The notes under the pieces were generated by a model. That model saw only the letters and a list, made by a program, of their open reading frames with translations, ran no database searches and was not told where the DNA came from. A program made the position numbers and the translations under genes. A stretch of DNA of 39,069 nucleotides, taken from the NCBI GenBank assembly GCA_022508735.1, contig JAFLUQ010000004.1:1-39069 (forward strand), in the 5' to 3' direction. This document shows, piece by piece, positions 4,679-32,027 of this stretch. Numbering within the stretch: position 1 is the first letter of the stretch; every line of letters starts with the position of its first letter. Source of the stretch: Oscillospiraceae bacterium. Lineage in GTDB: Bacteria > Bacillota > Clostridia > UMGS1883.

Positions 4679-4718
4679 TCCACTCCCTCTTTCCCATGCA
4701 AACAATATATCTTATTTA

Positions 4719-4996: not shown

Positions 4997-5071
4997 GTGA
5001 AAATATACGTAGTCAGGCTTCCGAAGGTACTTAACGCCATTGCACGAATGTTTTTAAGAGTCAAAGATTAG
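4997..5071 (+). CDS. spoVM: Stage V sporulation protein M (SpoVM), 24 aa, GTG start; too short to appear in the ORF track
   Basis: The translation (M)KIYVVRLPKVLNAIARMFLRVKD matches B. subtilis SpoVM, recalled as MKFYTIKLPKFLGGIVRAMLGSFRKD, at K2, Y4, LPK, L, I, R, L and the terminal KD. AAGGAGG lies 9 nt upstream. A terminator follows. Confidence 0.8.
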   Translation: MKIYVVRLPKVLNAIARMFLRVKD

Positions 5072-5084
5072 GCATAAGAGAGTC

Positions 5085-5115
5085 AAAAGGGGACTGCCGA
5101 AGCAGTCCCCTTTTT
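5085..5115. terminator. Bidirectional intrinsic terminator shared by spoVM (+) and mini-ORF 1 (-)
   Basis: AAAA-GGGGACTGC-CGAA-GCAGTCCCC-TTTTT, a 9-bp perfect stem. Confidence 0.8.
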
Positions 5116-5132
5116 CTATGCTCGATTTGCTA

Positions 5133-5306
5133 TTACAGCCAACCCTCGCTTGCACCCATCCAAATTTCAGCCTTTGTTTCGTCAGTGTCAGAAACACTGC
5201 TCATATTGGATTTTTTATTAACCAGATTGGCTGACGCAGCCATCACGTCCGTATCAGGAGTGAGGGTTGTCATCTCAACCTCAGGAGTTTCAAAATACTT
5301 TCTCAT
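5133..5306 (-). CDS. Mini-ORF 1 (57 aa), acidic, no signal peptide; paralogue of 25810..25989; unknown function
   Basis: MRKYFETPEVEMTTLTPDTDVMAASANLVNKKSNMSSVSDTDETKAEIWMGASEGWL. GGAGG immediately follows the stop of the upstream giant gene, and the gap to the ATG is 15 nt. It shares M-[KR]-[KR]-YFE-x-P-x-V and a C-terminal IWxG with the second copy. It is absent from the ORF track, whose shortest listed ORF is 60 aa. Confidence 0.65.
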   Translation of the reverse strand: MRKYFETPEVEMTTLTPDTDVMAASANLVNKKSNMSSVSDTDETKAEIWMGASEGWL

Positions 5307-5321
5307 TTTTATTAATCCTCC

Positions 5322-8300
5322 TTATACTTCTTCAATAAAGTCGAGCTCGCCGGCAACAGTCTCGTCGGCAGCAGCTTCTTCAACCTCAAGAACGAATTCT
5401 ACGTCTTCAAGGTAGATAACAGCCTCAAGAGCCATAGCATCGCCGATCGTTATTGTCTTTCCGTCATTGGATACAGTAACGCCGCTCTTGATATCAGACT
5501 CTTTATCAGAAGCATACTTAATTGTGTCTGCGAATCTTACACCCGCATTGTAAACCTCTGCCTTAAGATCAATGGTGATCGTGTCATCATTATCTGTGAG
5601 GGTCATGAGCAGCTCCGCCTCAGCTGTAAGCTTTCTGTTAGTGAGATAGATACCGCCGTTATTCAGAACCTCCATAGCCTTAACAAGCTGATCCTCTTTA
5701 ATAACAGTATCAGCGTTCTTGGCTGCGAAGTCTGCTACTGCCTGTGCAACAAGGCTGTATACGCTGACAACAGCTGTTGCCTTGCTTTCAACTTCGTCGG
5801 TCACACCAACCGCCTGATAGCTGGCGTTAGTATCGGCAGTGGAGAAGGCCACGCCGGACTCACCGTTAAGCTCGCCAACTACGGGGTTCTCCTTATCGCC
5901 GTTCTTGTAAACCTTCACGCTGTCACCGCTGTAGGTGAAGTCGATAGTGAAGTCTTCAGCCTCATCATCCCAGCCAAGGCTTACGATAGGAGCGGGAATA
6001 GTTGCAGTTACTTCTTTGATCTCATCCTCACTGAGAGCAGTATTGAAGAACATGAAGTTGTCGATAGTGCCGTTGAAGTCCTGATTGTTGCCACGGTTAG
6101 CAGTATCAGTATACCACTGGCCACGACCGATGAGGTTGCGGTCTGTTGCGCCGGCGATCTGATATGCCTGATAGGTAACATTTGTGCCTGTAGCCTGAGT
6201 AACGATATTGTTATCACTGTCTACAGTATAAACTGTTGTTGTCTTTGTAGCAGCGTTATAGCTTGTAACAAGCCAATACTCGCCGCTAAGATATGCTCCG
6301 CCCTGAACCATAAGCGTTGTGCCGCCGGCATACTTGACACCCGCCTGATATCTGTTTCCGTCACGGGTATTAAGTCTGGTAAACATGCTGTTGCCGGAGT
6401 TCATTCCGAAGTCATAAAGTCTGGGATCCTGTCTGTCTGTACCACCGGAGATCTTCTGAACAACGGTGTAGCTGCGAACGCCCTTAAGGAAGTCATGAGG
6501 AACGTTCAGATAGCCGTTTGTATCCCAACCGTCAGCAGTGTTGGCGGTAAGGTCAAGCTTGCCGTTGTCAAAGTTAGCCTTGCTTCCCTTAACCTCGGCG
6601 TCAAGGCCGTTGCCGCTTACGTCGGGAACAATATTTCCGTCTACATTGTTGAAATCATAGTAGAACATAAGGTTCTCGTCCATAACGTCAACCTTTGCAA
6701 GCACGGTCACTGTGAACACCTTAGTGCTGTCGCCGGCCGAGGCTGTAAGAGTTACAACATGATCCTCGCCGTCACGGGTAACAGCGCCGGTAGCATCCAT
6801 AACGCCGTCGCCGTCTACAGTCCAGGTCACCGTCTTTCCGTCAGCCGTCTTAGTGGGAAGAACAAGGTCGGTAACAGTCTCAGACGGAATAGAGAGACCA
6901 TTGATAGTGTCAACACTGTCTTCATCAAACTCCTCGGCCGCGGCGCGAACCTCAGCCTGAGTGAAGGCCACATCGGCAGAGCGGAGATTGGTGATCATGC
7001 CCTCTCCGCCAAGTGTAACTGTGTCGCCAAGAGATACGTTCACGTTCTGCATGGTGGCGTCGATAAGGCCGTTTACATATGTAACGAGCTCAGAGCCGTC
7101 ATAGGTAATTGTGTAGTTGATCCAGCCGAGAGAACTCTGGCCCTTTGTGCCGCCGGTGCCGCCAAGACTGAAGTACCAGGCGGAGTCACTAAACAGATTC
7201 TGGCTCTTTTCAACAACACTGCCAACTGTGAGCTTGGGAGCCACAGCAGCATAATTGTGTGTGTTGTCAACTGTCTGCTTTTCAAGGTCGATCTTAAGGT
7301 TGCCGCTCTTGAGAAGAGTACCTTCGGCAGCCATATCGCTCTGGAGAAGCTCCAGAGAAATAGTGAACTCCTTGCCGGCAGTAATGGGAGCGGTCGCTGT
7401 AACGCCGTCGCCAACGCCGTAAATTTCTTCATCAACGCCGTCAAACTTGTTTACAACCGGAAGCTCCTTAAGCTCAGTTGTTGTCATCATCTGAACGGGA
7501 TAACCCAGACCGCCGTGCTGGTTGCTGTGGATCCAGTAGTAATAGTCACCGTTGAACCAGGTCAGGCGCAGGTCGCCTTCCTCGCTGCCGTTGGAAACGT
7601 AGGGACGGGCGTTATCCTTCATGGAATCCTTTGTGATAAATTCTTCGTCTGCAAGATCGGTGTAACTATCGTTAAGAGTCCATTTTACGATCTCCCAAAT
7701 TCTGCCGAATGCGCCGTCAACAGGAATAGATGCATAAACGATATGGGGATCAGCCTTATCAATGGACATACCGCCGCTGTAGCAGTTCTCAGTAGCGGGT
7801 GTCTGGTGGAAGAATGTGTTGAAGGAGGGATCGGGCAAATCGAAAATGTTCCAGCCACTGCCTGTATATGTAGCATAGTAGTAGTTGTGAACCTTTTTGC
7901 TGCCGTCGATCTTGACCATAGCTATAACAGGGAACTCAACCTTATTTTCACCTTCAACTCTTTCGTCAAGAGCGATCTCCCAAACCCAGTCACGGTAGTT
8001 GGCTGTACGATCTACCACATAATTGGGGTCGGTCTCGTTACCGCTTACAGTGTATACATTGCTCGATTTAAGGTCGCTGAGCTCGTTGCCCTTCATATCG
8101 TAAAGCTTGAGCTCGGGGATGCTGATATAGTTGCAGTAGATGGGGTTTGTACCTACATTGTCAGGATGTGTGCCGGTATAGGTGAGCCAGATCTTGTCCT
8201 TGCCGTTGGAAGCGTACTTGGCATAGGGCCTGATATTGCTGCCCAGAGTGGACTGCACGATCTGTCTGGGCCCCCAGGTAAATTTAGTTGTAAAGCCGTT

Positions 8301-9794
8301 ATCCTTAGAAGGCATTTCGAGCTGAGCGATCGTAGGATGCCATTCCACACCTCTCCATGTGAGATAGATGTGATCAGGGTCGCTTTCAAGAATAACAGGG
8401 TTGGGATATGTTGTATTCTTCTCCGTAGCGAGTCTGTGCTCCTCACCAAAGGTAGTAATATCATAGGCCTCCTTAGAGACTCTGTAGTAGAAGCAGGGTT
8501 CGTCGGTATGACGGGAGTAGAATATCATAATCTTATGGTCGGGGAGTTCGAGGAAGGTGGGGTTGTTATGGTCGTCGGGCTGCAGATTGCTGCGGACGAG
8601 TACTTCCTCGTAGTCGCCGGTAAGATTGTCATACTGTGTAGCTCTTACGTTACCTACGTTATCTATGTAGCCAATATAAGTGTAGTTCACGCCGTCACCC
8701 TTAACAGTAAGCGTTCTGGGATCGGCGAACCAGCAGGTGGCTCCGTCGGCGATAACGCTGCCGGTAATACCTGCGCCGTCAAATTTATTATACATGATCG
8801 TAATTACGTTGTCACTTCCTGCCTTAGGAGTTATAGTGAGGGTAGAATCCTTTTCACTATAGGTGTAGATGTCATCGCCGATTTTAATAGGCGCTGTGCT
8901 CTGGGGAACATATGTGAAGCTTTCTCCAACGGTAGCGAGAACCTCCTTATCATCCACACCGGAGGGGGTGCCGTCGGAAAGCACGGTCTTAACCGTCACC
9001 TTAACTACCTTTTCACTGTCAACATTAGCAGAGATCTTAAGTCCCTGAAGAGCCATAGCGGCATACTGGTTATTCCACTGAGGAATATTTGCGCTGATGC
9101 TGCCAAAGCCATTTATGCTGTCGATAGTCTCAGTTGTGATGACTTCAAATTCACCGTTTTTATCACTGTCATAGCTGTAGGTAACAGTATATGTTCCATC
9201 AGCAGCCTTTACCGCCTCAATGCGGAAAGGTACACCGCGCATACCGAGAACCTTGCTGCGATCATGGCTTACAAGAGCATATGCTGTACCGTTCACGCCG
9301 CCGATATCCATACCGGCATTCTGCACGCCGCCTGAGGTCGCGCTTCCCGCGTCAGTATAAACTGTGGCAAACTCTTTGCCGTCGACGTCAAGGAAATGCC
9401 ATCTCTGATACAAATCAGAGGCTTCCTGCGTTGCATAAGTGTACTCGATAACGATTTTATCGCTACCGGCGGTTATGGCGCCATCATCAAAGGTCGCAAC
9501 CTTTGTTTCGTCAGTTCCGTTTGCCCTTGCGCCTGTGCGGAAGAACATGAGTCCCGCAACACCCCATGGCGCAACGTTCCATGCGCCACCTGTGCTCCAC
9601 TGGGAACTGAACAGGGCACCACCCTCGTTGGCAGACCAGCCATAATCGGCAAGCTGGATATCGCCATGAGTGGCGGTGTCAATTTCGGCCGCGTCAAAGA
9701 CCACTGTTTCCTCAACAGCCGCAAATGCGTTAAGCACCGGGCATATTGAAAGAATCATTGCCAAGGCCACGACCAGGGAAATAAATTTTTTCAT
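5322..9794 (-). CDS. Giant secreted modular protein 1 (1490 aa): signal peptide, shared N-module, Ig-like domain, BNR_4-like beta-propeller, LamG, Ig-like, LamG, shared C-module
   Basis: Signal peptide MKKFISLVVALAMILSICPVLNAFA. BNR_4-like motifs QPDDHNNPTFLELPDHKIMIFYSRH. LamG_3-like segments LMFYYDFNN...GNGLDAEV and FNGTIDNFMFFNTALSEDEI. The C-terminal 221 aa are homologous to the C-terminus of 26003..30061. AAGGAGAG lies 7 nt upstream of the ATG. Confidence 0.85.
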   Translation of the reverse strand: MKKFISLVVALAMILSICPVLNAFAAVEETVVFDAAEIDTATHGDIQLADYGWSANEGGALFSSQWSTGGAWNVAPWGVAGLMFFRTGARANGTDETKVATFDDGAITAGSDKIVIEYTYATQEASDLYQRWHFLDVDGKEFATVYTDAGSATSGGVQNAGMDIGGVNGTAYALVSHDRSKVLGMRGVPFRIEAVKAADGTYTVTYSYDSDKNGEFEVITTETIDSINGFGSISANIPQWNNQYAAMALQGLKISANVDSEKVVKVTVKTVLSDGTPSGVDDKEVLATVGESFTYVPQSTAPIKIGDDIYTYSEKDSTLTITPKAGSDNVITIMYNKFDGAGITGSVIADGATCWFADPRTLTVKGDGVNYTYIGYIDNVGNVRATQYDNLTGDYEEVLVRSNLQPDDHNNPTFLELPDHKIMIFYSRHTDEPCFYYRVSKEAYDITTFGEEHRLATEKNTTYPNPVILESDPDHIYLTWRGVEWHPTIAQLEMPSKDNGFTTKFTWGPRQIVQSTLGSNIRPYAKYASNGKDKIWLTYTGTHPDNVGTNPIYCNYISIPELKLYDMKGNELSDLKSSNVYTVSGNETDPNYVVDRTANYRDWVWEIALDERVEGENKVEFPVIAMVKIDGSKKVHNYYYATYTGSGWNIFDLPDPSFNTFFHQTPATENCYSGGMSIDKADPHIVYASIPVDGAFGRIWEIVKWTLNDSYTDLADEEFITKDSMKDNARPYVSNGSEEGDLRLTWFNGDYYYWIHSNQHGGLGYPVQMMTTTELKELPVVNKFDGVDEEIYGVGDGVTATAPITAGKEFTISLELLQSDMAAEGTLLKSGNLKIDLEKQTVDNTHNYAAVAPKLTVGSVVEKSQNLFSDSAWYFSLGGTGGTKGQSSLGWINYTITYDGSELVTYVNGLIDATMQNVNVSLGDTVTLGGEGMITNLRSADVAFTQAEVRAAAEEFDEDSVDTINGLSIPSETVTDLVLPTKTADGKTVTWTVDGDGVMDATGAVTRDGEDHVVTLTASAGDSTKVFTVTVLAKVDVMDENLMFYYDFNNVDGNIVPDVSGNGLDAEVKGSKANFDNGKLDLTANTADGWDTNGYLNVPHDFLKGVRSYTVVQKISGGTDRQDPRLYDFGMNSGNSMFTRLNTRDGNRYQAGVKYAGGTTLMVQGGAYLSGEYWLVTSYNAATKTTTVYTVDSDNNIVTQATGTNVTYQAYQIAGATDRNLIGRGQWYTDTANRGNNQDFNGTIDNFMFFNTALSEDEIKEVTATIPAPIVSLGWDDEAEDFTIDFTYSGDSVKVYKNGDKENPVVGELNGESGVAFSTADTNASYQAVGVTDEVESKATAVVSVYSLVAQAVADFAAKNADTVIKEDQLVKAMEVLNNGGIYLTNRKLTAEAELLMTLTDNDDTITIDLKAEVYNAGVRFADTIKYASDKESDIKSGVTVSNDGKTITIGDAMALEAVIYLEDVEFVLEVEEAAADETVAGELDFIEEV

Positions 9795-9832
9795 GTAGTC
9801 TCTCTCCTTTTTTGATAAAATTACATAATATA

Positions 9833-9861
9833 ATTTTACACTATTATTCTTTTTTTGTCAA
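9833..9861 (-). promoter_or_regulatory. Sigma-A-type promoter for giant protein 1
   Basis: On the minus strand: TTGACA (9861-9856), a 17-nt spacer, then TAAAAT (9838-9833). Confidence 0.55.
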
Positions 9862-9942
9862 GCATTATTTGTTGATTTTGCACAAATATTCTCGCACATG
9901 AGCCTTTCGCACTTACCTCTTTATTTTGTAAACTTTTTTTCA

Positions 9943-9981
9943 CAAAATAACCCCTTTGTTTTTCACAAAGGGGTTATAAAA
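9943..9981 (-). terminator. Intrinsic terminator downstream of recA
   Basis: ATAACCCCTTTG / CAAAGGGGTTAT forms a 12-bp perfect stem with a 7-nt loop, followed by TTTT on the minus strand. Confidence 0.8.
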
Positions 9982-9993
9982 GCAATTATCTTT

Positions 9994-11070
9994 CTACTCC
10001 TCATCGCCCTCCGACGAAGATGGGATACCATAGGTCACCTCGGCTATCTTCATGCGTACAAGGCTGTCTATCATCTGAGTGAATTCGGGGTTTTCCTCCA
10101 TGTACTTACGAACGTTGTCGCGGCCCTGCCCGAGACGGTTGCCCTCATAGCTGAACCACGCTCCGCTGCGCTTTATTATGCCGAGCTCCTCGGCCACGTC
10201 AAGTATGCAGCCTTCTTGGCTGATGCCTTTGCCGTAGATTATGTCGAACTCCGCCTCCTTAAAGGGGGGCGCCACCTTATTTTTAACGACCTTAGCCCGG
10301 GTTCGGTTACCGATGAACTCAGCACCGTTCTTAATGGCGTCTATCCTTCTTATGTCAAGCCTTACCGAAGCATAGAACTTGAGAGCCCGGCCGCCGGCAG
10401 TGGTCTCGGGGTTGCCGTACATAACGCCGATCTTCTCACGGAGCTGATTTATGAAAATACAAACGGTGTTGCTCTTGTTAACCACACCTGCCAGCTTACG
10501 GAGAGCCTTGCTCATAAGACGGGCCTGAAGGCCCACATGAGAGTCGCCCATCTCGCCCTCGATCTCGGCCTGGGGCACCAGTGCGGCAACCGAGTCAACG
10601 ACTATAACATCCAGCGCACCGCTGCGGCACAGAGCCTCGGTTATTTCAAGGGCCTGCTCACCGGTATCGGGCTGAGAAACTATGAGGCTGTCAACGTCCA
10701 CGCCTATAGCCGCGGCGTAAACAGGGTCAAGGGCGTGCTCAGCATCTATAAAGGCCGCCTCTCCGCCGCGCTTCTGTGCCTCGGCCACCACATGAAGGGC
10801 GACCGTGGTCTTACCGCTGGACTCAGGGCCGTAAATTTCGATTATTCTGCCACGGGGAACGCCGCCGATACCGAGCGCCAGATCCAGACTCATGGCGCCG
10901 GTGGGGATCGCGTCCACATTCAGGCGCGGAGTCGCGCCAAGGCGCATAACGCTGCCCTTGCCGTATTGCTTCTCTATCTGGCCCATAGCGAGAGTAAGGG
11001 CCTCCTTTTTAGCTTCAGCCTCCTGTATGTCAACGACAGGGGCAATTTTTTTCTTATCATCTTTAGCCAT
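9994..11070 (-). CDS. recA: Recombinase RecA (358 aa)
   Basis: Unambiguous RecA sequence: [15 protein letters not shown], the Walker [20 protein letters not shown] and [23 protein letters not shown]. Confidence 0.98.
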
Positions 11071-11098
11071 TTTTATCTTCCTCCTTTTGTTTACTTAG

Positions 11099-11112
11099 CG
11101 AACATCTGTTCT
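11099..11112 (-). promoter_or_regulatory. LexA (Cheo/SOS) box overlapping the recA transcription start region
   Basis: The minus strand reads AGAACAGATGTTCG, a GAAC-N4-GTTC match to the Gram-positive SOS-box consensus CGAACnnnnGTTCG. It lies 2 nt downstream of the -10. Confidence 0.7.
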
Positions 11113-11113
11113 C

Positions 11114-11142
11114 ATTATATAACGAATTGTCCGATTTGTCAA
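11114..11142 (-). promoter_or_regulatory. Sigma-A promoter of recA
   Basis: On the minus strand: TTGACA (11142-11137), a 17-nt spacer, then TATAAT (11119-11114). Both hexamers match consensus. Confidence 0.7.
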
Positions 11143-11150
11143 TAATTTTT

Positions 11151-24290: not shown

Positions 24291-25112
24291 ATGTTCAAGG
24301 AGAACAAACAGTATATCGCTGTTATTATGATAGTTGTGCTGGCAGCGGCGATGGTCACTATGTATGCCGTGAACAGGCGCAATCAGCAAGCGCAATTAGC
24401 CGGCTATGCTGAGGCCGTTTCTCTCTTTCAGGAAAGGCAGGCGGCCCGAATTGCGGCCGCTGACGAGCGCGAACATCGTAGGGCGGAAGCAGCAGAAACC
24501 GTAGCCTTTGCGGCATCGGTGCACCTGCCCGGTGTGGCGTTTTACGGAACTAATTTAAGCTACAATGAGGTCGGCGCGAGTCTGCCTGTCTTAGTTGAGG
24601 CACTTATAGATCAGAATGTTTATGATTCGCCGGTGAGCACGGTAAATGTGCTTGACCCTCATGAAACGGCCCTGCAAAAGACATACCTTCCGGTAATATT
24701 TATCAATGCGGACGCGTGGGACGGCACCATCGATGGTCTTATTTCACGTCAGAACGAGCTTATTGCAGGCCGCGAGCGCTACATAGTTTTGGGTATGCCC
24801 ACCGGCAGCCGGGAAGAAATGATGTACGTCGAAGCCGCTATGCTTGCGGAATACGGCGAAAAGTATATAAATCTGCGCGAATATCTCAGCACCGACGGCA
24901 TGGCGAGCATAAGCCTGCCCATTTCCGAGGCGGACATGGCAGCTATGGCCGAGGGGCGCATCCCCCCCGGACTCCTGGCAAGCGACGGCGTAAACCTGAA
25001 CGAGTCCGGCTACAAGCTGGCGGCCTTTCTTACATACGACCGCATGTCAGAGCTGGGCTATTTCAACGAAGTGCTCAGCGCAATTGATGAGTACAACGAA
25101 AAAGTAAGCTGA
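24291..25112 (+). CDS. Membrane-anchored hypothetical protein with a degenerate SGNH-hydrolase-like domain, 273 aa
   Basis: N-terminal TM helix IAVIMIVVLAAAMVTMYAV. VAFYGTNLS sits where SGNH block I (GDSxx) would lie. DGVNLNESGYKLAA resembles block V (DGvHlN..Gy..lA) with Asn in place of His. Confidence 0.5.
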   Translation: MFKENKQYIAVIMIVVLAAAMVTMYAVNRRNQQAQLAGYAEAVSLFQERQAARIAAADEREHRRAEAAETVAFAASVHLPGVAFYGTNLSYNEVGASLPVLVEALIDQNVYDSPVSTVNVLDPHETALQKTYLPVIFINADAWDGTIDGLISRQNELIAGRERYIVLGMPTGSREEMMYVEAAMLAEYGEKYINLREYLSTDGMASISLPISEADMAAMAEGRIPPGLLASDGVNLNESGYKLAAFLTYDRMSELGYFNEVLSAIDEYNEKVS

Positions 25113-25767: not shown

Positions 25768-25807
25768 ACGTAAAAACAGTGGGCCATGCGGCCCACTGTT
25801 TTTACGT
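25768..25807. terminator. Bidirectional intrinsic terminator shared by the HAD gene (+) and mini-ORF 2 (-)
   Basis: ACGTAAAAACAGTGGGCC-ATGC-GGCCCACTGTTTTTACGT is an 18-bp perfect inverted repeat that includes the A and T tracts. Confidence 0.85.
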
Positions 25808-25809
25808 GA

Positions 25810-25989
25810 TCAATGATTAAAGCCTTTCCAGATACTGTAATCTTTGGAGGTGTCGTCAGTGAGTTTGTTACTGTAGTCAACGGCATTGATCTTTGCAAGA
25901 TTCATTGAAACAAGCGGCTCATCCATGATGGAATTAGCCGGATCCAGCGCCTCTATGCACACCTGGGGAATTTCAAAATATCTCTTCAT
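25810..25989 (-). CDS. Mini-ORF 2 (59 aa), paralogue of 5133..5306; unknown function
   Basis: MKRYFEIPQVCIEALDPANSIMDEPLVSMNLAKINAVDYSNKLTDDTSKDYSIWKGFNH. Start re-called to the ATG at 25989, with GGAGG 8 nt upstream. The track's start at 26055 would overlap the upstream gene. Confidence 0.65.
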   Translation of the reverse strand: MKRYFEIPQVCIEALDPANSIMDEPLVSMNLAKINAVDYSNKLTDDTSKDYSIWKGFNH

Positions 25990-26002
25990 GTTTATTACCT
26001 CC

Positions 26003-29000
26003 TCAGACTTCTTCCACGAAACTAAGCTCGCCGGAAACGGCCTCGTCCGCGGCACTTTCCGCTATATCCTCAAGCACGAATTCAATGTCCTCAAGGTAGA
26101 TGACAGCGGCCTCAAGGCCGATGCCGTTCAGGCCCACAATTTTGGCACTTGCGCCGTTTACCTCAACGGACAATGATGTTCCGTCAGAAGCCTCAACAGC
26201 CATTTTGTCGCCAAAGGTCAGGCCCGCCTTAACCACGTTTTCGTTGAGCGTGATCTCGTCGCCTTTGAGCTCCATGATTAGCGCAGCCTCATCGTTAAGC
26301 TTCCAGGCGCTATTCTCCTTGATGAGGTAGAAGCCGCCGTCATTGAGTACCTTGAGCGCGGCATCCTTCTGATCGGATTTGATAGGAGCATCAAAGTTCT
26401 TAAGAGCCTTAGCCACAAGGCTGTATACACTGGCAGGATCGCTGGCGTTAACGCCTACATAACCATTAGAGTCAGTCACCTTGGCGGTGTATATGGCGTT
26501 GGTGTGAACCGGAGCAACCGCAATACCCTTGATATCATCATTTACTGTAATATCCTTCTCGCCGATAGATGTAGTACCGTTAAATACTTCAACTGTGTAT
26601 GTTCCGGTCACGCCCTCGCCGAACAGGAAGTCAACAGTAAAGTTCTTACCATCCCAGCCAAGAGCAGGAGTTACACTGGCAACATCAACTGTCTTGCCAA
26701 CAATTTTAATGTCATTGCCTCTGAGTCTGTACAAACCACCGTGGCTGTCGCCGAAGATAACTACCTTTCCGCTTTCACCAATGATTCTGTTCATCTTTTC
26801 CGCATCAAGGGAAATGCTGACTGGAGTTGCGTCAGTGTTATCCGCATTAACACTATTAGTGTAGAAAGCCACCTTGTTTTCATCGGTAAAATTGGCAGTT
26901 ACTGCCGTAAAGTCGGAAATATCCAGTTTCTGATAATCCTCATAGCTGATTGCATAGAAATTCACATTGTTTGTACCGGTAGTATAGTCACGCAGTCTTG
27001 TTGCGTCAAGCGTGTAAGAATTATGTCCTCTTTCAACCTCAAGAATCGCAACACCGACACGTCTGTTATCGCTGGCTGCACCCACAGCACCCCAGTTATA
27101 TGCCGAAAAATTGGTATCCAATGTTCCGCCTTCGTAGTATGCCAGTGTGCGGCCTACAGTCTTGCGCTCGTCTTTCTGTATGGTGTAAACATTGCTCGGC
27201 AAAGCAGCAACCGTAAGATCGATACTTCCGTTATAGGGAACAGGTATAACTGCTGAACCTGCCGAAGTAGGCGTATCAGTAACAACGTAGTAGCCGTAGT
27301 CTCCACCCTTGAATAACTCGTGACCCTCGGTATAAAGCGTACCAACCATGAGCTGCTTTGTTTCGGACTGCTCGATCGTGCCTTTATAATTAACTGTAAT
27401 ATCCTGAGCCTCATTGCAGCTCTTGAGAAGTCTAACGATATCGTCAGTGTTTGACCCCGCATTATTGACCATAACAACAGGGAGCGAGGAAAGCCAGTTG
27501 GGATAGCTTGTTCCACTAAGGGCGCTGTACAAATTATTATTATCCGTAGTAGCCTGATTTACAAGGCTGGTAAGAATACTCTCTGACTGCGCCTGCATTA
27601 CGCGGAACATGTCAACGATCGGATGGTTTCCATCTCTTTTGCTCATTTTATCGATCTGATTGTTTATATAACCCGCACTGAAAGAACTCTGTATTTTTGT
27701 ACCAGATGAAGGCTCATAATTCGAGTAAAGCTTTCCGGCAAAGGATTCCGCACTGCTGTATCCGCGAAGAATAAATTTGCCGATACTTGAAAGAGTTGCT
27801 TTATCCCTGCCAAAAAGAACGATGTTTGCCTTTGTTCCGTTATTTGTAAGTCCTCCGTAGGTTTGTGCCGCTAAATCAGAATCCTTATTAAGGGTCACAA
27901 AATCATTTATTCCGGTTGTCGTCAGCAGGCTGTCAATGGCGCGCCATGTGTCAGGTGTACTGTTGCCATCGGAATTAACATTATCCCATGCCTCCTGAAA
28001 GTCAAGAACAATTATTTCGCCGGGATGCTCCTTAGCCCACTGTGCCACCGTAACCATTATCGGTGCAAATTCGCCGCTGAGGAATCCGTGCGTTGTGTAA
28101 AACACACTGTTTGTATGAGGTGCAGTATGTTTTGTTTTAAATATAATCCCAGTTTCTATAACGAAATCACTTGATGAGCGCGAAAGGCGAATGTCAAAAT
28201 AACGAACACCGCTGTCTAGCAGCCCAAGAGCATCCTTTTCCTGTGCCTTGCTTGCCGATGCTCCTGTGCCGCCATCAGCCTTTGTTACTGTTTGAGAACC
28301 CGTGTCACCCTGCTGACTTCCAGCTGCATCCATCTTATTCGTTATCTCCGCCGTGAACGCATCATGCGCCCCCAGCATATTAAGAGAAATAAAGGGCGTG
28401 TCATTGGCAACATTATCAAAGAAGCGTTCCGGTTTTGTTGCCTCATATGTAAGGGTTATGGTTTTGTCGCTTGTATTTACTTCCTTTTTCTTAAATACAT
28501 ATCCCTCTTTATACGGAATTACAAGGTTGGGGAATATCTTTTCTCCATTATATCCGAGGTCCGTCGATTCTGTCGTGGTAACTGTATATTCATCAGCCTT
28601 CACGCCGCTGAATTTAACCGTGTAATTCTGAATGCTGCTGGCCGCTTCGGGAGCGTAGAACTTAACGTTGCTTATCTTCAGGTCGCCGTTAGCGCCGCTG
28701 CCGTTGGTAAGCATGGTGATCGTGTTTATGTAATCGGAATCTGTACGGAAGTGACGTGTGCCGCTCTCATACGTGCTGCCGTCTGCCTTGGTAAGAGTAA
28801 GGTTATATTCATCTGTATAGGCATTGGCAGTCATAAAAATTCTATAAGTCTCGCCTGCCGCAACGGTAGTTATTGACGGAAGATTTGAATTATTACCCTT
28901 GCCATCACCGCCCGTGGGGCTAAAGCTGCCATTTGTGCCAAGACCGATCTGCCCGGCACCGAAAATCTTACCGTCCGCGCCTATCTGAACGGAGGAGTCA

Positions 29001-30061
29001 CGTATGGCGTTAACTGTCAGATCAAATTCCATGCTGAATTCCTGTGACAGACTGACGGGCAGATATACAACATTGCCCGGCTGTCCGTTGTAGGATTCCT
29101 GATCCGGCATGGCAAAGGTCATGGGGTAAACGACAATGGTGGTGCTTACGTCAGTCCCTCCGGCCGTACCTTTAAGTTCAAAGGTTTTTACATCTGAACC
29201 GGTTGTAAAATCAGCGTTTTCCCATGTGACAGGAGTCTCTGTTCCACGGATAGAAACTGTTTTAGGAAGAATGGGTTCGTTACCGCTGATCACGCTTATT
29301 GGTGCAACATAGGATTCCGGCATCACAGCACCGATTGTAAGGTCAATGAAACCGATATGCTCGTAATTATCCCAATAACCGCCAAGACCTTGAATCGCTC
29401 CAAAACCATTAATCACATCCGCAGCTGAATTATTTGTTGCAACCTTTTTACCGTCTACATAGTATTCAACGGTATGGGTGGCTCCGTCGGCATTGTTATA
29501 TGCAACAATAGCCATATCCGTGCCAATTTCAGGATAGCCCATAGCATAATATCCGTCGCTATTTGTTTCATCAGCAACCGTATGGTTTTTATCTAATTTA
29601 AGAAAAGCAATTTCTTTTCCGTTTGAATCTTTGAAGGAAAAGTCATAATAGCATGTGCCACCCGCACCCGGACCGACCTGCCCCTTATGCTTCCACTCAA
29701 TTATTACCTTTTCGGCACCTTTAGCCTGAGCAGCTGCAGGGGCGGAAACAGTCGCATTAAGGTCAGTATTAACCGGGCTGTAAAACTGCAAGGTTATTCC
29801 CTCATTATATGATCTCAGATTTGCATACCCGGCATTGACAGATGTCGACCAGCCCGACCAGTTCGACGCAACCGGCGCGTTACCATCGTTGTCTGTTCCC
29901 ACTAAGCTGTTGTCAGGAGCGCTCCATATTACGGTTGCACCTTCAATAGTGTTGATAACCGTAGTAGACGAAGCTGCCCCGGCGGTGATCGCCAATCCTG
30001 GGACCAGGGCCGTGATCATGGCTATTGCCAAAAGCATGGCCAAAAGTTTTTTGGTTTTCAT
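26003..30061 (-). CDS. Giant secreted modular protein 2 (1352 aa): signal peptide, shared N-module, Ig-like domain, LamG-like domain, PI-PLC X-domain-like module, beta-rich region, shared C-module
   Basis: Start re-called to the ATG at 30061 (MKTKKLLAMLLAIAMITALVPGLAITAGA), with GGGAGGA upstream. The track start at 30229 overlaps asnB. PI-PLC-like motifs: LGAHDAF, GVRYFDIRLS and YTTHGF. The C-terminal 220 aa are homologous to those of 5322..9794. Confidence 0.85.
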   Translation of the reverse strand: MKTKKLLAMLLAIAMITALVPGLAITAGAASSTTVINTIEGATVIWSAPDNSLVGTDNDGNAPVASNWSGWSTSVNAGYANLRSYNEGITLQFYSPVNTDLNATVSAPAAAQAKGAEKVIIEWKHKGQVGPGAGGTCYYDFSFKDSNGKEIAFLKLDKNHTVADETNSDGYYAMGYPEIGTDMAIVAYNNADGATHTVEYYVDGKKVATNNSAADVINGFGAIQGLGGYWDNYEHIGFIDLTIGAVMPESYVAPISVISGNEPILPKTVSIRGTETPVTWENADFTTGSDVKTFELKGTAGGTDVSTTIVVYPMTFAMPDQESYNGQPGNVVYLPVSLSQEFSMEFDLTVNAIRDSSVQIGADGKIFGAGQIGLGTNGSFSPTGGDGKGNNSNLPSITTVAAGETYRIFMTANAYTDEYNLTLTKADGSTYESGTRHFRTDSDYINTITMLTNGSGANGDLKISNVKFYAPEAASSIQNYTVKFSGVKADEYTVTTTESTDLGYNGEKIFPNLVIPYKEGYVFKKKEVNTSDKTITLTYEATKPERFFDNVANDTPFISLNMLGAHDAFTAEITNKMDAAGSQQGDTGSQTVTKADGGTGASASKAQEKDALGLLDSGVRYFDIRLSRSSSDFVIETGIIFKTKHTAPHTNSVFYTTHGFLSGEFAPIMVTVAQWAKEHPGEIIVLDFQEAWDNVNSDGNSTPDTWRAIDSLLTTTGINDFVTLNKDSDLAAQTYGGLTNNGTKANIVLFGRDKATLSSIGKFILRGYSSAESFAGKLYSNYEPSSGTKIQSSFSAGYINNQIDKMSKRDGNHPIVDMFRVMQAQSESILTSLVNQATTDNNNLYSALSGTSYPNWLSSLPVVMVNNAGSNTDDIVRLLKSCNEAQDITVNYKGTIEQSETKQLMVGTLYTEGHELFKGGDYGYYVVTDTPTSAGSAVIPVPYNGSIDLTVAALPSNVYTIQKDERKTVGRTLAYYEGGTLDTNFSAYNWGAVGAASDNRRVGVAILEVERGHNSYTLDATRLRDYTTGTNNVNFYAISYEDYQKLDISDFTAVTANFTDENKVAFYTNSVNADNTDATPVSISLDAEKMNRIIGESGKVVIFGDSHGGLYRLRGNDIKIVGKTVDVASVTPALGWDGKNFTVDFLFGEGVTGTYTVEVFNGTTSIGEKDITVNDDIKGIAVAPVHTNAIYTAKVTDSNGYVGVNASDPASVYSLVAKALKNFDAPIKSDQKDAALKVLNDGGFYLIKENSAWKLNDEAALIMELKGDEITLNENVVKAGLTFGDKMAVEASDGTSLSVEVNGASAKIVGLNGIGLEAAVIYLEDIEFVLEDIAESAADEAVSGELSFVEEV

Positions 30062-30115
30062 TTTCTGTTTTCCTCCCTTTTTGTTTTTAACTTGAACCAA
30101 TATTAACCTGAGTAT

Positions 30116-30144
30116 AGTATACCATAACCACACCCCGGACGCAA
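30116..30144 (-). promoter_or_regulatory. Sigma-A promoter (extended -10) for giant protein 2
   Basis: On the minus strand: TTGCGT (30144-30139), a 17-nt spacer ending in TGg, then TATACT (30121-30116). Confidence 0.55.
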
Positions 30145-30172
30145 GTGTTTTTTTGTTTTTTTGATAACGAAA

Positions 30173-30196
30173 CCCCGGGGCCGAAGGGCACCGGGG
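30173..30196 (-). terminator. Hairpin terminator downstream of asnB
   Basis: The minus strand reads CCCCGGTGCC-CTTC-GGCCCCGGGG, a 10-bp stem with one mismatch, followed by TTTCGTT. The T-tract is weak. Confidence 0.5.
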
Positions 30197-30206
30197 CGAG
30201 TCTATG

Positions 30207-32027
30207 CTATATTTCCACTTTAACATCATATTTTCTCATCCAATAGTTTATCTGCAGCATATATGCAATGGTCTGGGGCGTTGTCATGAGCTGGCCGTAC
30301 CAGGGCTGGGCCTTGTCGGCAGTGAACAGGCCCTCAAGGGCGGCCTTATCGGCGAGGCTGAGAAGAGGTGAGCCGCTGTCTTCAATAACCTCTCGGAGCA
30401 GGCCGGATACCGCCTTAAGATAACCGGGGTTATGGGTCTTCGGATAGGGACTCTTTTTGCGCCAGAGCACCTCCTCGGGCAGCAGGCCCTCCATGGCCTT
30501 GCGGAGCAGTCCCTTTTCACGCCCCTCGTAGTTCATATAATCCCACGGCACGCTGTACATATATTCCACGATGCTGATATCGCAGAAGGGCACACGGGCC
30601 TCCACGCCGCTGTACATGGTCATGAAGTCCTTGCGGCCAAGGAGCGTCTGCATGAACCAGTCAAAATTCAGGCGCATCATTTCCTTCATGCGGTCATCGG
30701 TGGGTGAATTGCCGCTGAGCTTATGAGCCTCGCTGACGGTCTTATAGTACCTTTCGGAAACATAATCCTGCGGTGCGATAAGGCTTTGCAGCTCAGGGCG
30801 GAGAAAGCTGTAGCGGTACATTGTGGACTGTGACCAAGGGAAGCCCTCGGCCATGCGGATAGTTTCGTCCCGATACCACGGATAACCGCCGAAGATCTCG
30901 TCGGCGCACTCTCCGCTGAGGCCCACCGAGAAATTCTTCTTTATCTCCCTGGCAAAGACTAAAAGCGAAGAATCCACGTCAACCATGCCGGGCAGGCCTC
31001 GGGCATCCACCGCCTCGAACAGGGCCTGAGTCAGCTCAGGCGTGTCAATAAGGATACGGTGGTTGGTCACGCCGAGAAAGCTGTTCATCATATTTATATA
31101 CGCTTCGTCGCTGTTAGGCTGGAACTTGCCGGGCGTAAAGTACTTGCCGTTGTCCACATAGTCTACGCTGTAGGTGTGGAGCTCCTTGCCGCGCGCGGCC
31201 AGCTCTTTGGCTGCCACAGCGGAAATTATGCTGGAATCCAGCCCACCGGAAAGGAAGGTAAAGATCGGTATATCTGACACTAACTGGCGCTTTATGGCAC
31301 TTACCACCAACTCCCGGGTGCGCTCTATGGTCTGCGGCAGAGTGTCGGTATGCTCGCGCTGTCGAAGCTCCCAGTATTTACGATAATTTAATTTTCCGTC
31401 CTTTACCATACCGCAGCAGGCCGGAGGCAGCTCCTTTATCCCCTTTAATACGCCACAGCCGGGCGTGCGTCCGGGGCCTATCAGGAACAATTCCTTTACA
31501 GAGCCTATGTCAATTATGGGTTTTATGTCTTTATGCCGGAGCAAAGCCGCCACCGATGAAGCAAACACGAAGCCGCCGCCTGTCTCAGCGTAAAAGAAGG
31601 GCTTAACGCCCATGCGGTCACGGGCGACGAACAGCTCATGACCGTTCCAGACGGCGAATGCAAAGATGCCGTTAAACAGGTTCAGGCAGTCCTCGCCCAG
31701 CTCCATATAGGCACGGAGAACCACCTCGGTGTCTGACGCGGTGGAAAATACCACTCCGCGCTCCTTGCATCTGTTACGTATATCGTCGGTGTTGTACAGT
31801 TCGCCGTTGTAGACTATGGTGTATCCGTCGCGAGTCATAGGCTGGAGACCGTTTTCCAGATCTATGACCGACAGGCGGGTGTGTATCAGCGCAGCGCCGT
31901 CATCGCTGAAAAAACCTCGCTGATCCGGCCCGCGCCTCCAGAGCTCCCGCTGCATCTCAAGCTGATAGTCCTCCATGGCAGTTTGTTTTTTTAGACGGGG
32001 GGAAATTTCCCCGGCAATTCCGCACAT
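30207..32027 (-). CDS. asnB: Asparagine synthase (glutamine-hydrolysing), 606 aa
   Basis: N-terminal nucleophile MCGI. GATase-2 region RLSVIDLENGLQPM...NGELYN. Synthetase PP-loop FLSGGLDSS. Confidence 0.9.
   Translation of the reverse strand: MCGIAGEISPRLKKQTAMEDYQLEMQRELWRRGPDQRGFFSDDGAALIHTRLSVIDLENGLQPMTRDGYTIVYNGELYNTDDIRNRCKERGVVFSTASDTEVVLRAYMELGEDCLNLFNGIFAFAVWNGHELFVARDRMGVKPFFYAETGGGFVFASSVAALLRHKDIKPIIDIGSVKELFLIGPGRTPGCGVLKGIKELPPACCGMVKDGKLNYRKYWELRQREHTDTLPQTIERTRELVVSAIKRQLVSDIPIFTFLSGGLDSSIISAVAAKELAARGKELHTYSVDYVDNGKYFTPGKFQPNSDEAYINMMNSFLGVTNHRILIDTPELTQALFEAVDARGLPGMVDVDSSLLVFAREIKKNFSVGLSGECADEIFGGYPWYRDETIRMAEGFPWSQSTMYRYSFLRPELQSLIAPQDYVSERYYKTVSEAHKLSGNSPTDDRMKEMMRLNFDWFMQTLLGRKDFMTMYSGVEARVPFCDISIVEYMYSVPWDYMNYEGREKGLLRKAMEGLLPEEVLWRKKSPYPKTHNPGYLKAVSGLLREVIEDSGSPLLSLADKAALEGLFTADKAQPWYGQLMTTPQTIAYMLQINYWMRKYDVKVEI

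Follow-up and report, generated by a model that had tools for sequence, protein, structure and literature searches.

Co-occurrence of a terminal protein module and a small downstream reading frame in secreted proteins, one of them with a phosphatidylinositol-specific phospholipase C-like domain

Dockerin, SLH, WxL and LPXTG modules, together with the C-terminal domain (CTD) of the type IX secretion system (T9SS) of Bacteroidota, are generic modules found at the extreme C-terminus of varied Sec-exported enzymes and adhesins, and to our knowledge none of these systems has a dedicated downstream micropeptide. A module of the same general layout, here called the C-module, ends two large secreted proteins encoded in a stretch of 39,069 nucleotides from an Oscillospiraceae bacterium (assembly GCA_022508735.1, contig JAFLUQ010000004.1; the whole stretch is referred to as the window), and in both cases a small open reading frame (mini-ORF) lies directly behind the large gene. 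The C-module shares an Ig/FN3-like sandwich with the T9SS CTD. It differs from all of these anchors: it has no sequence or Pfam match to them, lacks an LPXTG motif, a hydrophobic anchor and the Ca-binding repeats of dockerin, and possesses a unique acidic tail that is in register with the free C-terminus. The large protein treated here, copy 2, is a new member of kinds already known: it is a modular extracellular enzyme and falls in the superfamily of PLC-like phosphodiesterases. No described counterpart of the pairing of C-module, tail and micropeptide was found in the literature or in family searches; a literature search with the tail motifs as strings found no paper, and one for C-terminal sorting with small ORFs in Clostridia returned nothing relevant.

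The features of copy 2 and its mini-ORF are listed below in the order of transcription; the two ribosome-binding sites (RBS) were read, and the signal peptide was judged, from the sequence.

30072..30077, minus strand: RBS of the large gene, GGGAGG, 10 nt before the ATG at 30061
26003..30061, minus strand: large gene of copy 2 (P0001), encoding a secreted multidomain protein of 1352 aa, stop codon included
29972..30061, minus strand: Sec-type signal peptide, approximately aa 1-30, MKTKKLLAMLLAIAMITALVPGLAITAGA/AS; nearly all full-length relatives start alike
29315..29980, minus strand: N-module, aa 28-249, beta-rich, with an invariant ...INGF... motif, defined by BLASTP against copy 1, a family hidden Markov model (HMM) and alignment A6
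29156..29296, minus strand: Big_4-like Ig domain, aa 256-302, below the threshold of PF07532
28646..29149, minus strand: conserved beta domain, aa 305-472, earlier called LamG-like, which recurs in homologues
27404..28441, minus strand: TIM-barrel domain like that of phosphatidylinositol-specific phospholipases C (PI-PLCs), aa 541-886, with invariant GAHxAF, GVRYFDxR and H118 (..THG..)
26474..26674, minus strand: C-module part 1, FN3-like beta sandwich, aa ~1130-1196, AlphaFold pLDDT >90, with Foldseek FN3 matches
26135..26428, minus strand: C-module part 2, small alpha/beta subdomain, aa ~1212-1309, with motifs SVYSLV..A.., VL..GG.Y and GL.F
26006..26125, minus strand: C-module part 3, acidic tail, aa ~1313-1352, ..VIYLEDIEFVLEDIAESAADEAVSGELSFVEEV-COOH, conserved and predicted to be unstructured alone
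25998..26002, minus strand: RBS of the mini-ORF, GGAGG, within the 13-nt gap after the TGA of the large gene
25810..25989, minus strand: mini-ORF of 59 aa, MKRYFEIPQVCIEALDPANSIMD...SIWKGFNH, with a leader-like FxxPx[IV] at residues 5-10 and a WxG near the C-terminus
25768..25807, minus strand: intrinsic terminator with an 18-bp stem and a T-run, which ends the two-gene operon

The conserved unit at this locus is the C-module plus the mini-ORF, and it is carried on many extracellular enzyme or binding cargos. When 1.84 billion representatives were searched exhaustively by HMMER with a C-module profile, the module was found in 50 representative clusters, at the extreme C-terminus in all 50, in proteins of 335-1982 aa; nearly all of the full-length ones begin with a Sec-type signal peptide. 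The C-module family is rare, is always terminal and has an acidic tail of extreme conservation, and its cargos are diverse extracellular glycan-active or binding domains, including LamG, aBig_2, LRR_5, F5/8C, Big_2/4, BNR_4, GH88, GH43, heparinase II/III, beta-helix, peptidase M60, CBM4_9/96 and PI-PLC-X. The mini-ORF follows the C-module gene in eight of the nine loci with downstream DNA, which come from different metagenomes or metagenome-assembled genomes (MAGs); the eight are the two loci of the window and L002, L003, L005, L007, L008 and L009. It starts 13-23 nt after the stop codon of the large gene (gaps of 13, 14, 15, 17, 18, 18, 19 and 23 nt), and GGAGG is present in each gap. These gap lengths put the mini-ORF in varying frames across the loci, so it is translated on its own and not by read-through; fusion to the large ORF by read-through or frameshifting was rejected because the frames differ and every gap has its own GGAGG. 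At copy 2 the preliminary description of the window had correctly placed a 59-aa mini-ORF 13 nt behind the stop codon, and we add that it has its own GGAGG and is followed by a strong terminator, but the coupling of C-module to mini-ORF was under-weighted there.

An AlphaFold model of the C-module from a 40-sequence alignment (pLDDT 87.6) has an FN3-like sandwich at model residues 13-79, for which Foldseek returns FN3 only, an alpha/beta subdomain at residues 95-192 and a tail of ~40 residues that is unstructured (pLDDT ~60). The tail is the best-conserved part of the module: P0001 and P0022 are 92% identical over the last 40 aa against 38% in the folded part. Among the 46 complete C-termini the last residue is V, I, L or M in every one, E occupies position -1 in 38, F or Y position -4 in 41 and D or E position -5 in 37, and the mean net charge over the last 40 residues is -12. 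The tail consensus is ...ELDF[VI]EE[VIL]-COOH, and copy 2 ends ...SGELSFVEEV. A tail whose positions are fixed relative to the free carboxyl end, and which is disordered by itself, suggests a C-terminal linear docking or recognition motif. No consistent Pfam match was obtained for 40 C-modules (E<=1), nor any NCBIfam or PDB match, and the C-terminus of copy 2 has no LPXTG, no hydrophobic stretch and no dockerin, SLH, WxL or CWB match. Pattern scans for the C-module in GTDB genomes returned one locus, in a rabbit-gut Clostridia MAG, with alignment A4 and none with alignment A1; the scan of JGI metagenomes returned none, and that of IMG/VR viral contigs also none, so there is no sign of a phage origin.

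The mini-ORF peptides are 53-61 aa long and have the consensus MKKxFxxPE[IV]xxxELxxxxx[IV]MA, in which the first 22 residues are conserved; a variable, polar stretch and [IVM]WxG follow, with the WxG 1-8 residues from the C-terminus. Seven columns are invariant in the eight homologues (M1, F5, P8, L15, M22, W54, G56), which are otherwise 28-35% identical to the copy-2 peptide. The intact frame, the RBS and seven invariant residues at 28-35% identity over eight loci indicate purifying selection on the peptide. The mini-ORF is called by independent gene callers, and a homologue is annotated at NCBI as a hypothetical protein in an Oscillospiraceae MAG. In the eight-sequence alignment the peptides show no signal peptide, no hydrophobic or membrane segment and no conserved Cys. 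They fall into no Pfam (E<=10) or NCBIfam family and a single-sequence PDB search was silent too; the mini-ORF HMM found nothing further in ~130 kb of window and loci, and a pattern scan of JGI metagenomes gave no relatives. A likeness between the end of the tail, DF[IV]PEL, and the start of the mini-ORF, F.xPE[IV], was dropped because the spacing is F-x-P in one and F-x-x-P in the other.

Copy 1 is built on the same plan as copy 2 at both ends.

5322..9794, minus strand: copy 1, 1490 aa, with signal peptide, N-module, BNR_4, aBig_2, LamG and C-module
5133..5306, minus strand: copy-1 mini-ORF, 57 aa, MRKYFETPEVEMTTLTPDTDVMA...EIWMGASEGWL, 15 nt after the stop codon, with AAGGAGG and a terminator

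Aligned by BLASTP, copies 1 and 2 share two separate matching regions. One covers the C-module (39% identity, 257 columns, E 2e-27), whose end in copy 2 the preliminary description had given as GELSFVEEV, and reaches the last residue of both proteins; the other covers the N-module (26% identity, 277 columns, E 4e-8) and includes the pair DVINGFGAI and DSINGFGSI. An N-module HMM built without copy 1 retrieves copy 1 at E 2.8e-14. The separate matches and the HMM result indicate that the similarity is not due to low-complexity or generic Ig sequence, and the N- and C-modules that had been proposed as common to the two copies are genuine homologous domains. Their borders coincide in both proteins by pairwise alignment: the N-module (~230 aa) starts directly after the signal peptide, and the C-module (~235 aa) runs from the LGWD...FT[IV]DF strand through the last residue. 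Between them the payloads differ, with a PI-PLC-like TIM barrel in copy 2 and BNR_4, aBig_2 and LamG in copy 1. Protein identity between the copies is only 26-39%, in the two matched regions, and their mini-ORFs align with 19 invariant columns.

Two shared modules around different payloads, each large gene with its mini-ORF, had been taken as a modular scaffold or cassette. The sharing, the difference in payload and the mini-ORFs stand; a single fixed frame of N- and C-module does not, because the modules are distributed independently. By HMM the N-module is present in only eight C-module proteins, namely 4 of 49 new representatives plus P0001, P0002, P0003 and copy 1, and the proteins that join both modules around different middles are copies 1 and 2, P0002, P0003, P0025, P0031, P0044 and P0063. 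A search with full-length copy 2 gave 15 relatives. Among the 14 N-module relatives, P0002-P0015, only P0002 and P0003 terminate in a C-module, and these two have the N-module, PLC domain and C-module of copy 2. P0004 and P0005 combine the N-module and PLC domain with different ends. P0006-P0015 have the N-module at 44-51% identity, some with the aa 305-472 domain, and GH88, BNR_4 or other ends; the N-module proteins without a C-module thus terminate in GH88, a BNR_4/LamG-type end or another C-terminal module. P0016, at 32% identity, is related more weakly and was not confirmed by the N-module HMM. The N-module itself matched no Pfam, NCBIfam or PDB family as a single sequence, and Pfam and PDB profile searches were also without a match. 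The two modules belong to independent domain families that are shuffled separately; this distribution indicates ordinary domain shuffling, in which the frame of copies 1 and 2 is a recurrent combination and not a scaffold.

The mini-ORF peptides are also like the precursors of peptides made on the ribosome and modified after translation (RiPPs) that depend on a RiPP recognition element (RRE), such as the lasso peptides and the linear polyphosphorylated peptides (LPPs) of Bacillota: both are short, have no signal peptide, and show an aromatic-xx-P-x-aliphatic motif near the N-terminus and a variable C-terminal part. The RRE-binding motif in lasso-peptide and LPP leaders is [Y/W]xxPx[L/V/I/F/A] (PMC13381572; PMC10368454), and the FxxPx[IV] at residues 5-10 of the mini-ORFs fits it except for F in place of Y/W. 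In the L007 peptide F, P and I stand at -17, -14 and -12 from the conserved M, which is the spacing given for lasso leaders (PMC10368454), and Ile or Val at -2 is known in some lasso leaders (PMC10368454). Unlike the RRE-dependent precursors, the mini-ORFs have F for Y/W, no adjacent maturation genes, a coupling to secreted-enzyme genes and no conserved ring Asp/Glu. No RRE/PqqD, cyclase, radical-SAM enzyme, kinase, leader peptidase or dedicated transporter was found in the 39-kb window or at loci L002, L003 and L005-L009, where the neighbours of the mini-ORFs are unrelated housekeeping genes that are different at each locus. Lasso cyclases are members of the asparagine synthase superfamily. 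A lasso cluster using the adjacent asparagine synthase as cyclase was rejected, as the enzyme beside copy 2 is a bona fide, full AsnB (GATase domain, Cys2, MCG start) with its own terminator and has no counterpart at the other loci. If the peptides were cleaved after the conserved M, only 2 of 8 would have D/E at core positions 7-9 (alignment A8); cores of ~35 aa without a consistent Asp/Glu at these positions indicate that they are not lasso peptides.

Mini-ORFs of a second class, ~48-55 aa long, follow the N-module proteins P0008 and P0006, which have another C-terminal module (...YVNQ.GIRL...NNNNS...).

L010, 5604-5771: second-class mini-ORF, after P0008
L012, 4793-4939: second-class mini-ORF, after P0006

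These peptides, MRKTYVSPLFAELELE...EFDGEDEFEFNF and MKKKYVSPLVEALELE...EFDGEEDFNF, have a very acidic C-terminus ending EF.FNF or DFNF, and their YxxPx[V/F] is an exact match to the RRE-binding motif. The tail of P0006, ..GGFDGEEIPLG, echoes the EFDGEE of the mini-ORF. P0004 and P0010 have no mini-ORF downstream. Two further families of small proteins were considered for the mini-ORFs of the C-module genes. The ComX precursor of Bacillus is ~55 aa long, has no signal peptide and carries a modified Trp near its C-terminus, and resembles the mini-ORFs in length and Trp position; it was rejected on an hhalign probability of 0.3% against an approximate ComX sequence, with no Pfam match (ComX is PF05952) and no ComQ-like prenyltransferase among the neighbours. 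The WXG100/ESAT-6 proteins, helical hairpins of ~100 aa with a central WxG, were rejected as the mini-ORF peptides are 53-61 aa with the WxG near the end, have no Pfam match, and are not accompanied by type VII secretion genes in the window.

We favour, with a probability of roughly 0.45, a reading in which the C-module serves as a generic handle whose tail attaches the enzyme to a partner, with the micropeptide as a second component of this device. The acidic tail, registered to the free carboxylate, would act as a short linear motif for docking and take up a fold only when bound to its partner; the partner would retain the enzyme, or help it to assemble, at the cell surface or within a complex, as dockerin, SLH and WxL modules do elsewhere. 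Through the FxxPx[IV] segment the micropeptide would bind, by beta-strand addition, either the C-module or its tail or else a common receptor or exporter whose gene lies elsewhere. The catalytic domain of copy 2 probably cleaves a phosphoinositol- or sugar-phosphodiester-linked substrate of the host or diet. A bolder form of this proposal, which we consider doubtful, is that C-module, tail and micropeptide make up an undescribed two-component sorting, docking or assembly system for secreted enzymes in Oscillospiraceae-type Clostridia of the gut, in which an RRE-style motif has been recruited outside RiPPs, and that the sister YxxPx[V/F] class, with its acidic ...EFDGE..FNF ends, serves the other C-terminal module.

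Several observations weigh against the handle-and-partner reading. P0018, at L006, is a C-module gene without a mini-ORF. A Mantel test of mini-ORF divergence against that of the C-module and tail gave r = 0.006 and 0.10, neither significant, for n=8. The second mini-ORF class behind another module shows that the micropeptide link is not exclusive to the C-module. A micropeptide with no signal peptide would not meet an exported C-module unless it leaves the cell by another route. The docking or assembly function is one that we infer, and the C-module matches no known anchoring family; the PI-PLC-like domain alone is below the PF00388 threshold and its assigned substrate is putative.

The nearest alternative, unlikely in our estimation although it accounts for several features of the peptides, is that the mini-ORFs are RiPP or pheromone precursors whose leader is cleaved after [IV]-M to give a WxG core, matured by unlinked RRE-dependent enzymes and an exporter, with the position behind the large gene reflecting co-expression or signalling. 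FxxPx[IV] at residues 5-10, and YxxPx[VF] in the second class, are placed as in lasso and LPP leaders, the L007 peptide has the lasso-leader spacing and Ile/Val at -2 has a precedent (PMC10368454), and the layout of a conserved N-terminus, variable middle and short conserved C-terminal motif, with no signal peptide, would suit a precursor; the occurrence of similar leaders behind proteins with the other C-terminal module also makes the peptide family wider than the C-module. Against these likenesses stand the lack, in the window and at the eight other loci, of any RRE/PqqD, cyclase, radical-SAM enzyme, kinase or leader peptidase, the bona fide AsnB with its own terminator, and the ~35-aa cores with no consistent Asp/Glu at positions 7-9; a coupling at 13-23 nt to one gene family in eight of nine loci would also be difficult to account for if the two had no functional connection. 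Another alternative is plain domain shuffling, in which the modules would be non-catalytic carbohydrate- or surface-binding domains and the mini-ORF a passenger at the 3' end with no role in the enzyme, brought in, for instance, by recombination together with the C-module and terminator. Beta-rich modular layouts are typical of Clostridia extracellular enzymes, the cargos are of the kinds usual among CAZymes and adhesins, each of the two modules is found without the other, one C-module gene has no mini-ORF and the Mantel test (n=8) gave no co-evolution signal. We nevertheless regard this reading as quite improbable, because the mini-ORF keeps its frame, RBS and seven invariant residues at 28-35% identity over eight loci, and the register of the tail with the free C-terminus points to specific recognition and not to passive binding.

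The reading of the preliminary description, a dedicated frame of N- and C-module whose payloads are swapped as a unit, draws on both window proteins and six others that join the two modules around different middles. It is largely refuted by the independent distribution of the modules: only eight C-module proteins have the N-module, most N-module proteins end otherwise, and the neighbours of the loci are housekeeping genes with no mobility signature among them, which leaves this reading with a slim chance. Slimmer by far is that of a polymorphic-toxin-like pair of C-terminal effector and small downstream immunity protein. A large secreted protein followed by a small ORF is the arrangement of toxin-immunity pairs, but the polarity is reversed, the C-terminus being conserved and the middle variable; the C-module consists of an FN3 and a small alpha/beta domain and matches no toxin family, and the micropeptide looks mostly unstructured and polar, unlike a folded immunity protein.

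Uncultured Oscillospiraceae-type Clostridia are abundant gut glycan degraders, and the C-module proteins bear no classical sortase, SLH or dockerin signals for surface retention. If the handle-and-partner reading is true, the C-module handle, found on GH43, GH88, heparinase-like, M60, BNR_4 and PI-PLC-like proteins, would together with the micropeptide be a new route for enzyme display or assembly, and a conserved family of ~55-aa small proteins now annotated only as hypothetical would acquire a function. The occurrence of FxxPx[IV] outside RiPP clusters matters to genome mining, where such peptides would be either false positives or precursors of an unlinked pathway.

The bacterial PI-PLCs closest to the catalytic domain of copy 2 are Listeria PlcA (2plc/1aod) and the S. 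aureus (3v16/4s3g) and B. cereus (1ptd) enzymes, which are secreted and have the same fold and the core GxRYxDxR...HG. As a single sequence the copy-2 region had no Pfam (E<=0.1), NCBIfam or PDB match and did not reach the PF00388 threshold; distant homologues match PF00388 just under the cut-off (22.5 bits vs 23.1), and a profile of 13 homologues matches PDB entries for PI-PLCs of Listeria, S. aureus and Bacillus with E values from 2e-9 to 3e-4. The AlphaFold model of aa 541-886 (pTM 0.83, pLDDT 72.8) has bacterial PI-PLCs as all of its top 22 PDB matches in Foldseek (E 4e-9 to 7e-6, TM 0.53-0.70). The original PI-PLC-like call is therefore upheld by both the profile search (E 2e-9) and the predicted fold (Foldseek E 4e-9). 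GAHxAF, GVRYFDxR and the H118 of ..THG.. are invariant in the 13 homologues (alignment A5). In the profile match the Arg and the second His align to IDIR...YHG of Listeria PI-PLC, and the first His may, by motif resemblance, be the His of GTHDS in PI-PLCs. The catalytic His/Arg/His of the B. cereus enzyme are, we take it, H32, R69 and H82, and these positions appear to be kept in the predicted domain of copy 2. Compared with the bacterial PI-PLCs, which are single-domain proteins of ~300 aa, the copy-2 domain is only 12-18% identical, has long inserts of low pLDDT (38-62, 92-108, 244-249) and is embedded in a multidomain protein of 1352 aa. It represents a diverged line within an enzyme family associated with virulence, met here in a commensal context.

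The two domains between the N-module and the PI-PLC-like barrel were less clear than first described. An Ig-like domain had been proposed, and aa 256-302 do match PF07532 (Big_4), although below its gathering threshold (14.2 bits vs a cut-off of 22.1, E 0.031); the homologues P0003, P0004 and P0010-12 carry precomputed PF07532 matches. The region called LamG-like, aa 305-472, is a real conserved domain that recurs in P0003-5, P0007, P0009, P0016, P0039 and P0044, but the LamG label was not sustained by Pfam or PDB profile searches. No Pfam match to LamG (PF13385, Laminin_G_3) was obtained in the protein or in nine homologous segments (E<=1), nor any PDB match with the profile; judged by these sequence searches, the fold may yet be a jelly-roll.

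The start of copy 2 had been re-called to 30061, giving 1352 aa and a signal peptide, and this holds. The mechanical ORF is 26003..30229 (minus strand, 1408 aa), and its 56 additional codons 5' of the ATG at 30061 cross the terminator hairpin of asnB at 30189..30172; the RBS GGGAGG, this upstream hairpin and the public gene calls, which likewise give 1352 aa, all agree with the later start. The asparagine synthase gene (30207..32027, minus strand; GATase_7 and Asn_synthase domains, start MCG) lies directly upstream of copy 2. There is no terminator between the large gene and its mini-ORF, which makes them a two-gene operon. The host is an uncultured, spore-forming, Oscillospiraceae-like member of the gut Clostridia and the operon is chromosomal. 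Housekeeping genes in the window include yqfD, phoH, recA, cinA, thiI, a topoisomerase subunit A gene and a shikimate pathway gene, among others, and the loci of copies 1 and 2 lie apart from each other, each amid such genes. Nothing marks either locus as mobile: no repeats or integrase were seen among the neighbours, repeats in the flanking DNA not having been explicitly searched. Elsewhere, an IS200-type Y1 transposase gene (L010, 294-1037) stands directly 5' of the N-module protein P0008, and is the sole mobility-related gene seen close to any family member.

The G+C content of both large genes (5001-10000 and 26001-30000) is 0.45-0.50, against mostly 0.51-0.60 in the surrounding housekeeping genes, which could reflect either the Thr/Asn/Ser/Lys-rich composition of extracellular domains or a foreign origin. 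Two long antisense ORFs, at 6495-9335 (plus strand, 946 aa) opposite copy 1 and at 9898-11145 (plus strand, 415 aa) opposite recA, are absent from the gene calls of the public contig and so are not to be treated as genes; neither Pfam nor NCBIfam gave a match to the 415-aa ORF. A 273-aa ORF at 24291-25112 (plus strand), between Mur-ligase-like and HAD hydrolase genes, lies beside the copy-2 operon on the opposite strand and has no match in Pfam or NCBIfam. Just 3' of the copy-1 mini-ORF, at 1814-4705 (minus strand), is a gene for a 963-aa protein with SLH, GH43 and ricin-B lectin domains, which indicates that the host also anchors extracellular enzymes by SLH. SLH proteins adjoin the loci in L003, L006 and L010 too; at L006 (7162-8391) P0018, a heparinase II/III-like protein, is followed by a gene for GCS2 (carboxylate-amine ligase family), after which comes an SLH protein.

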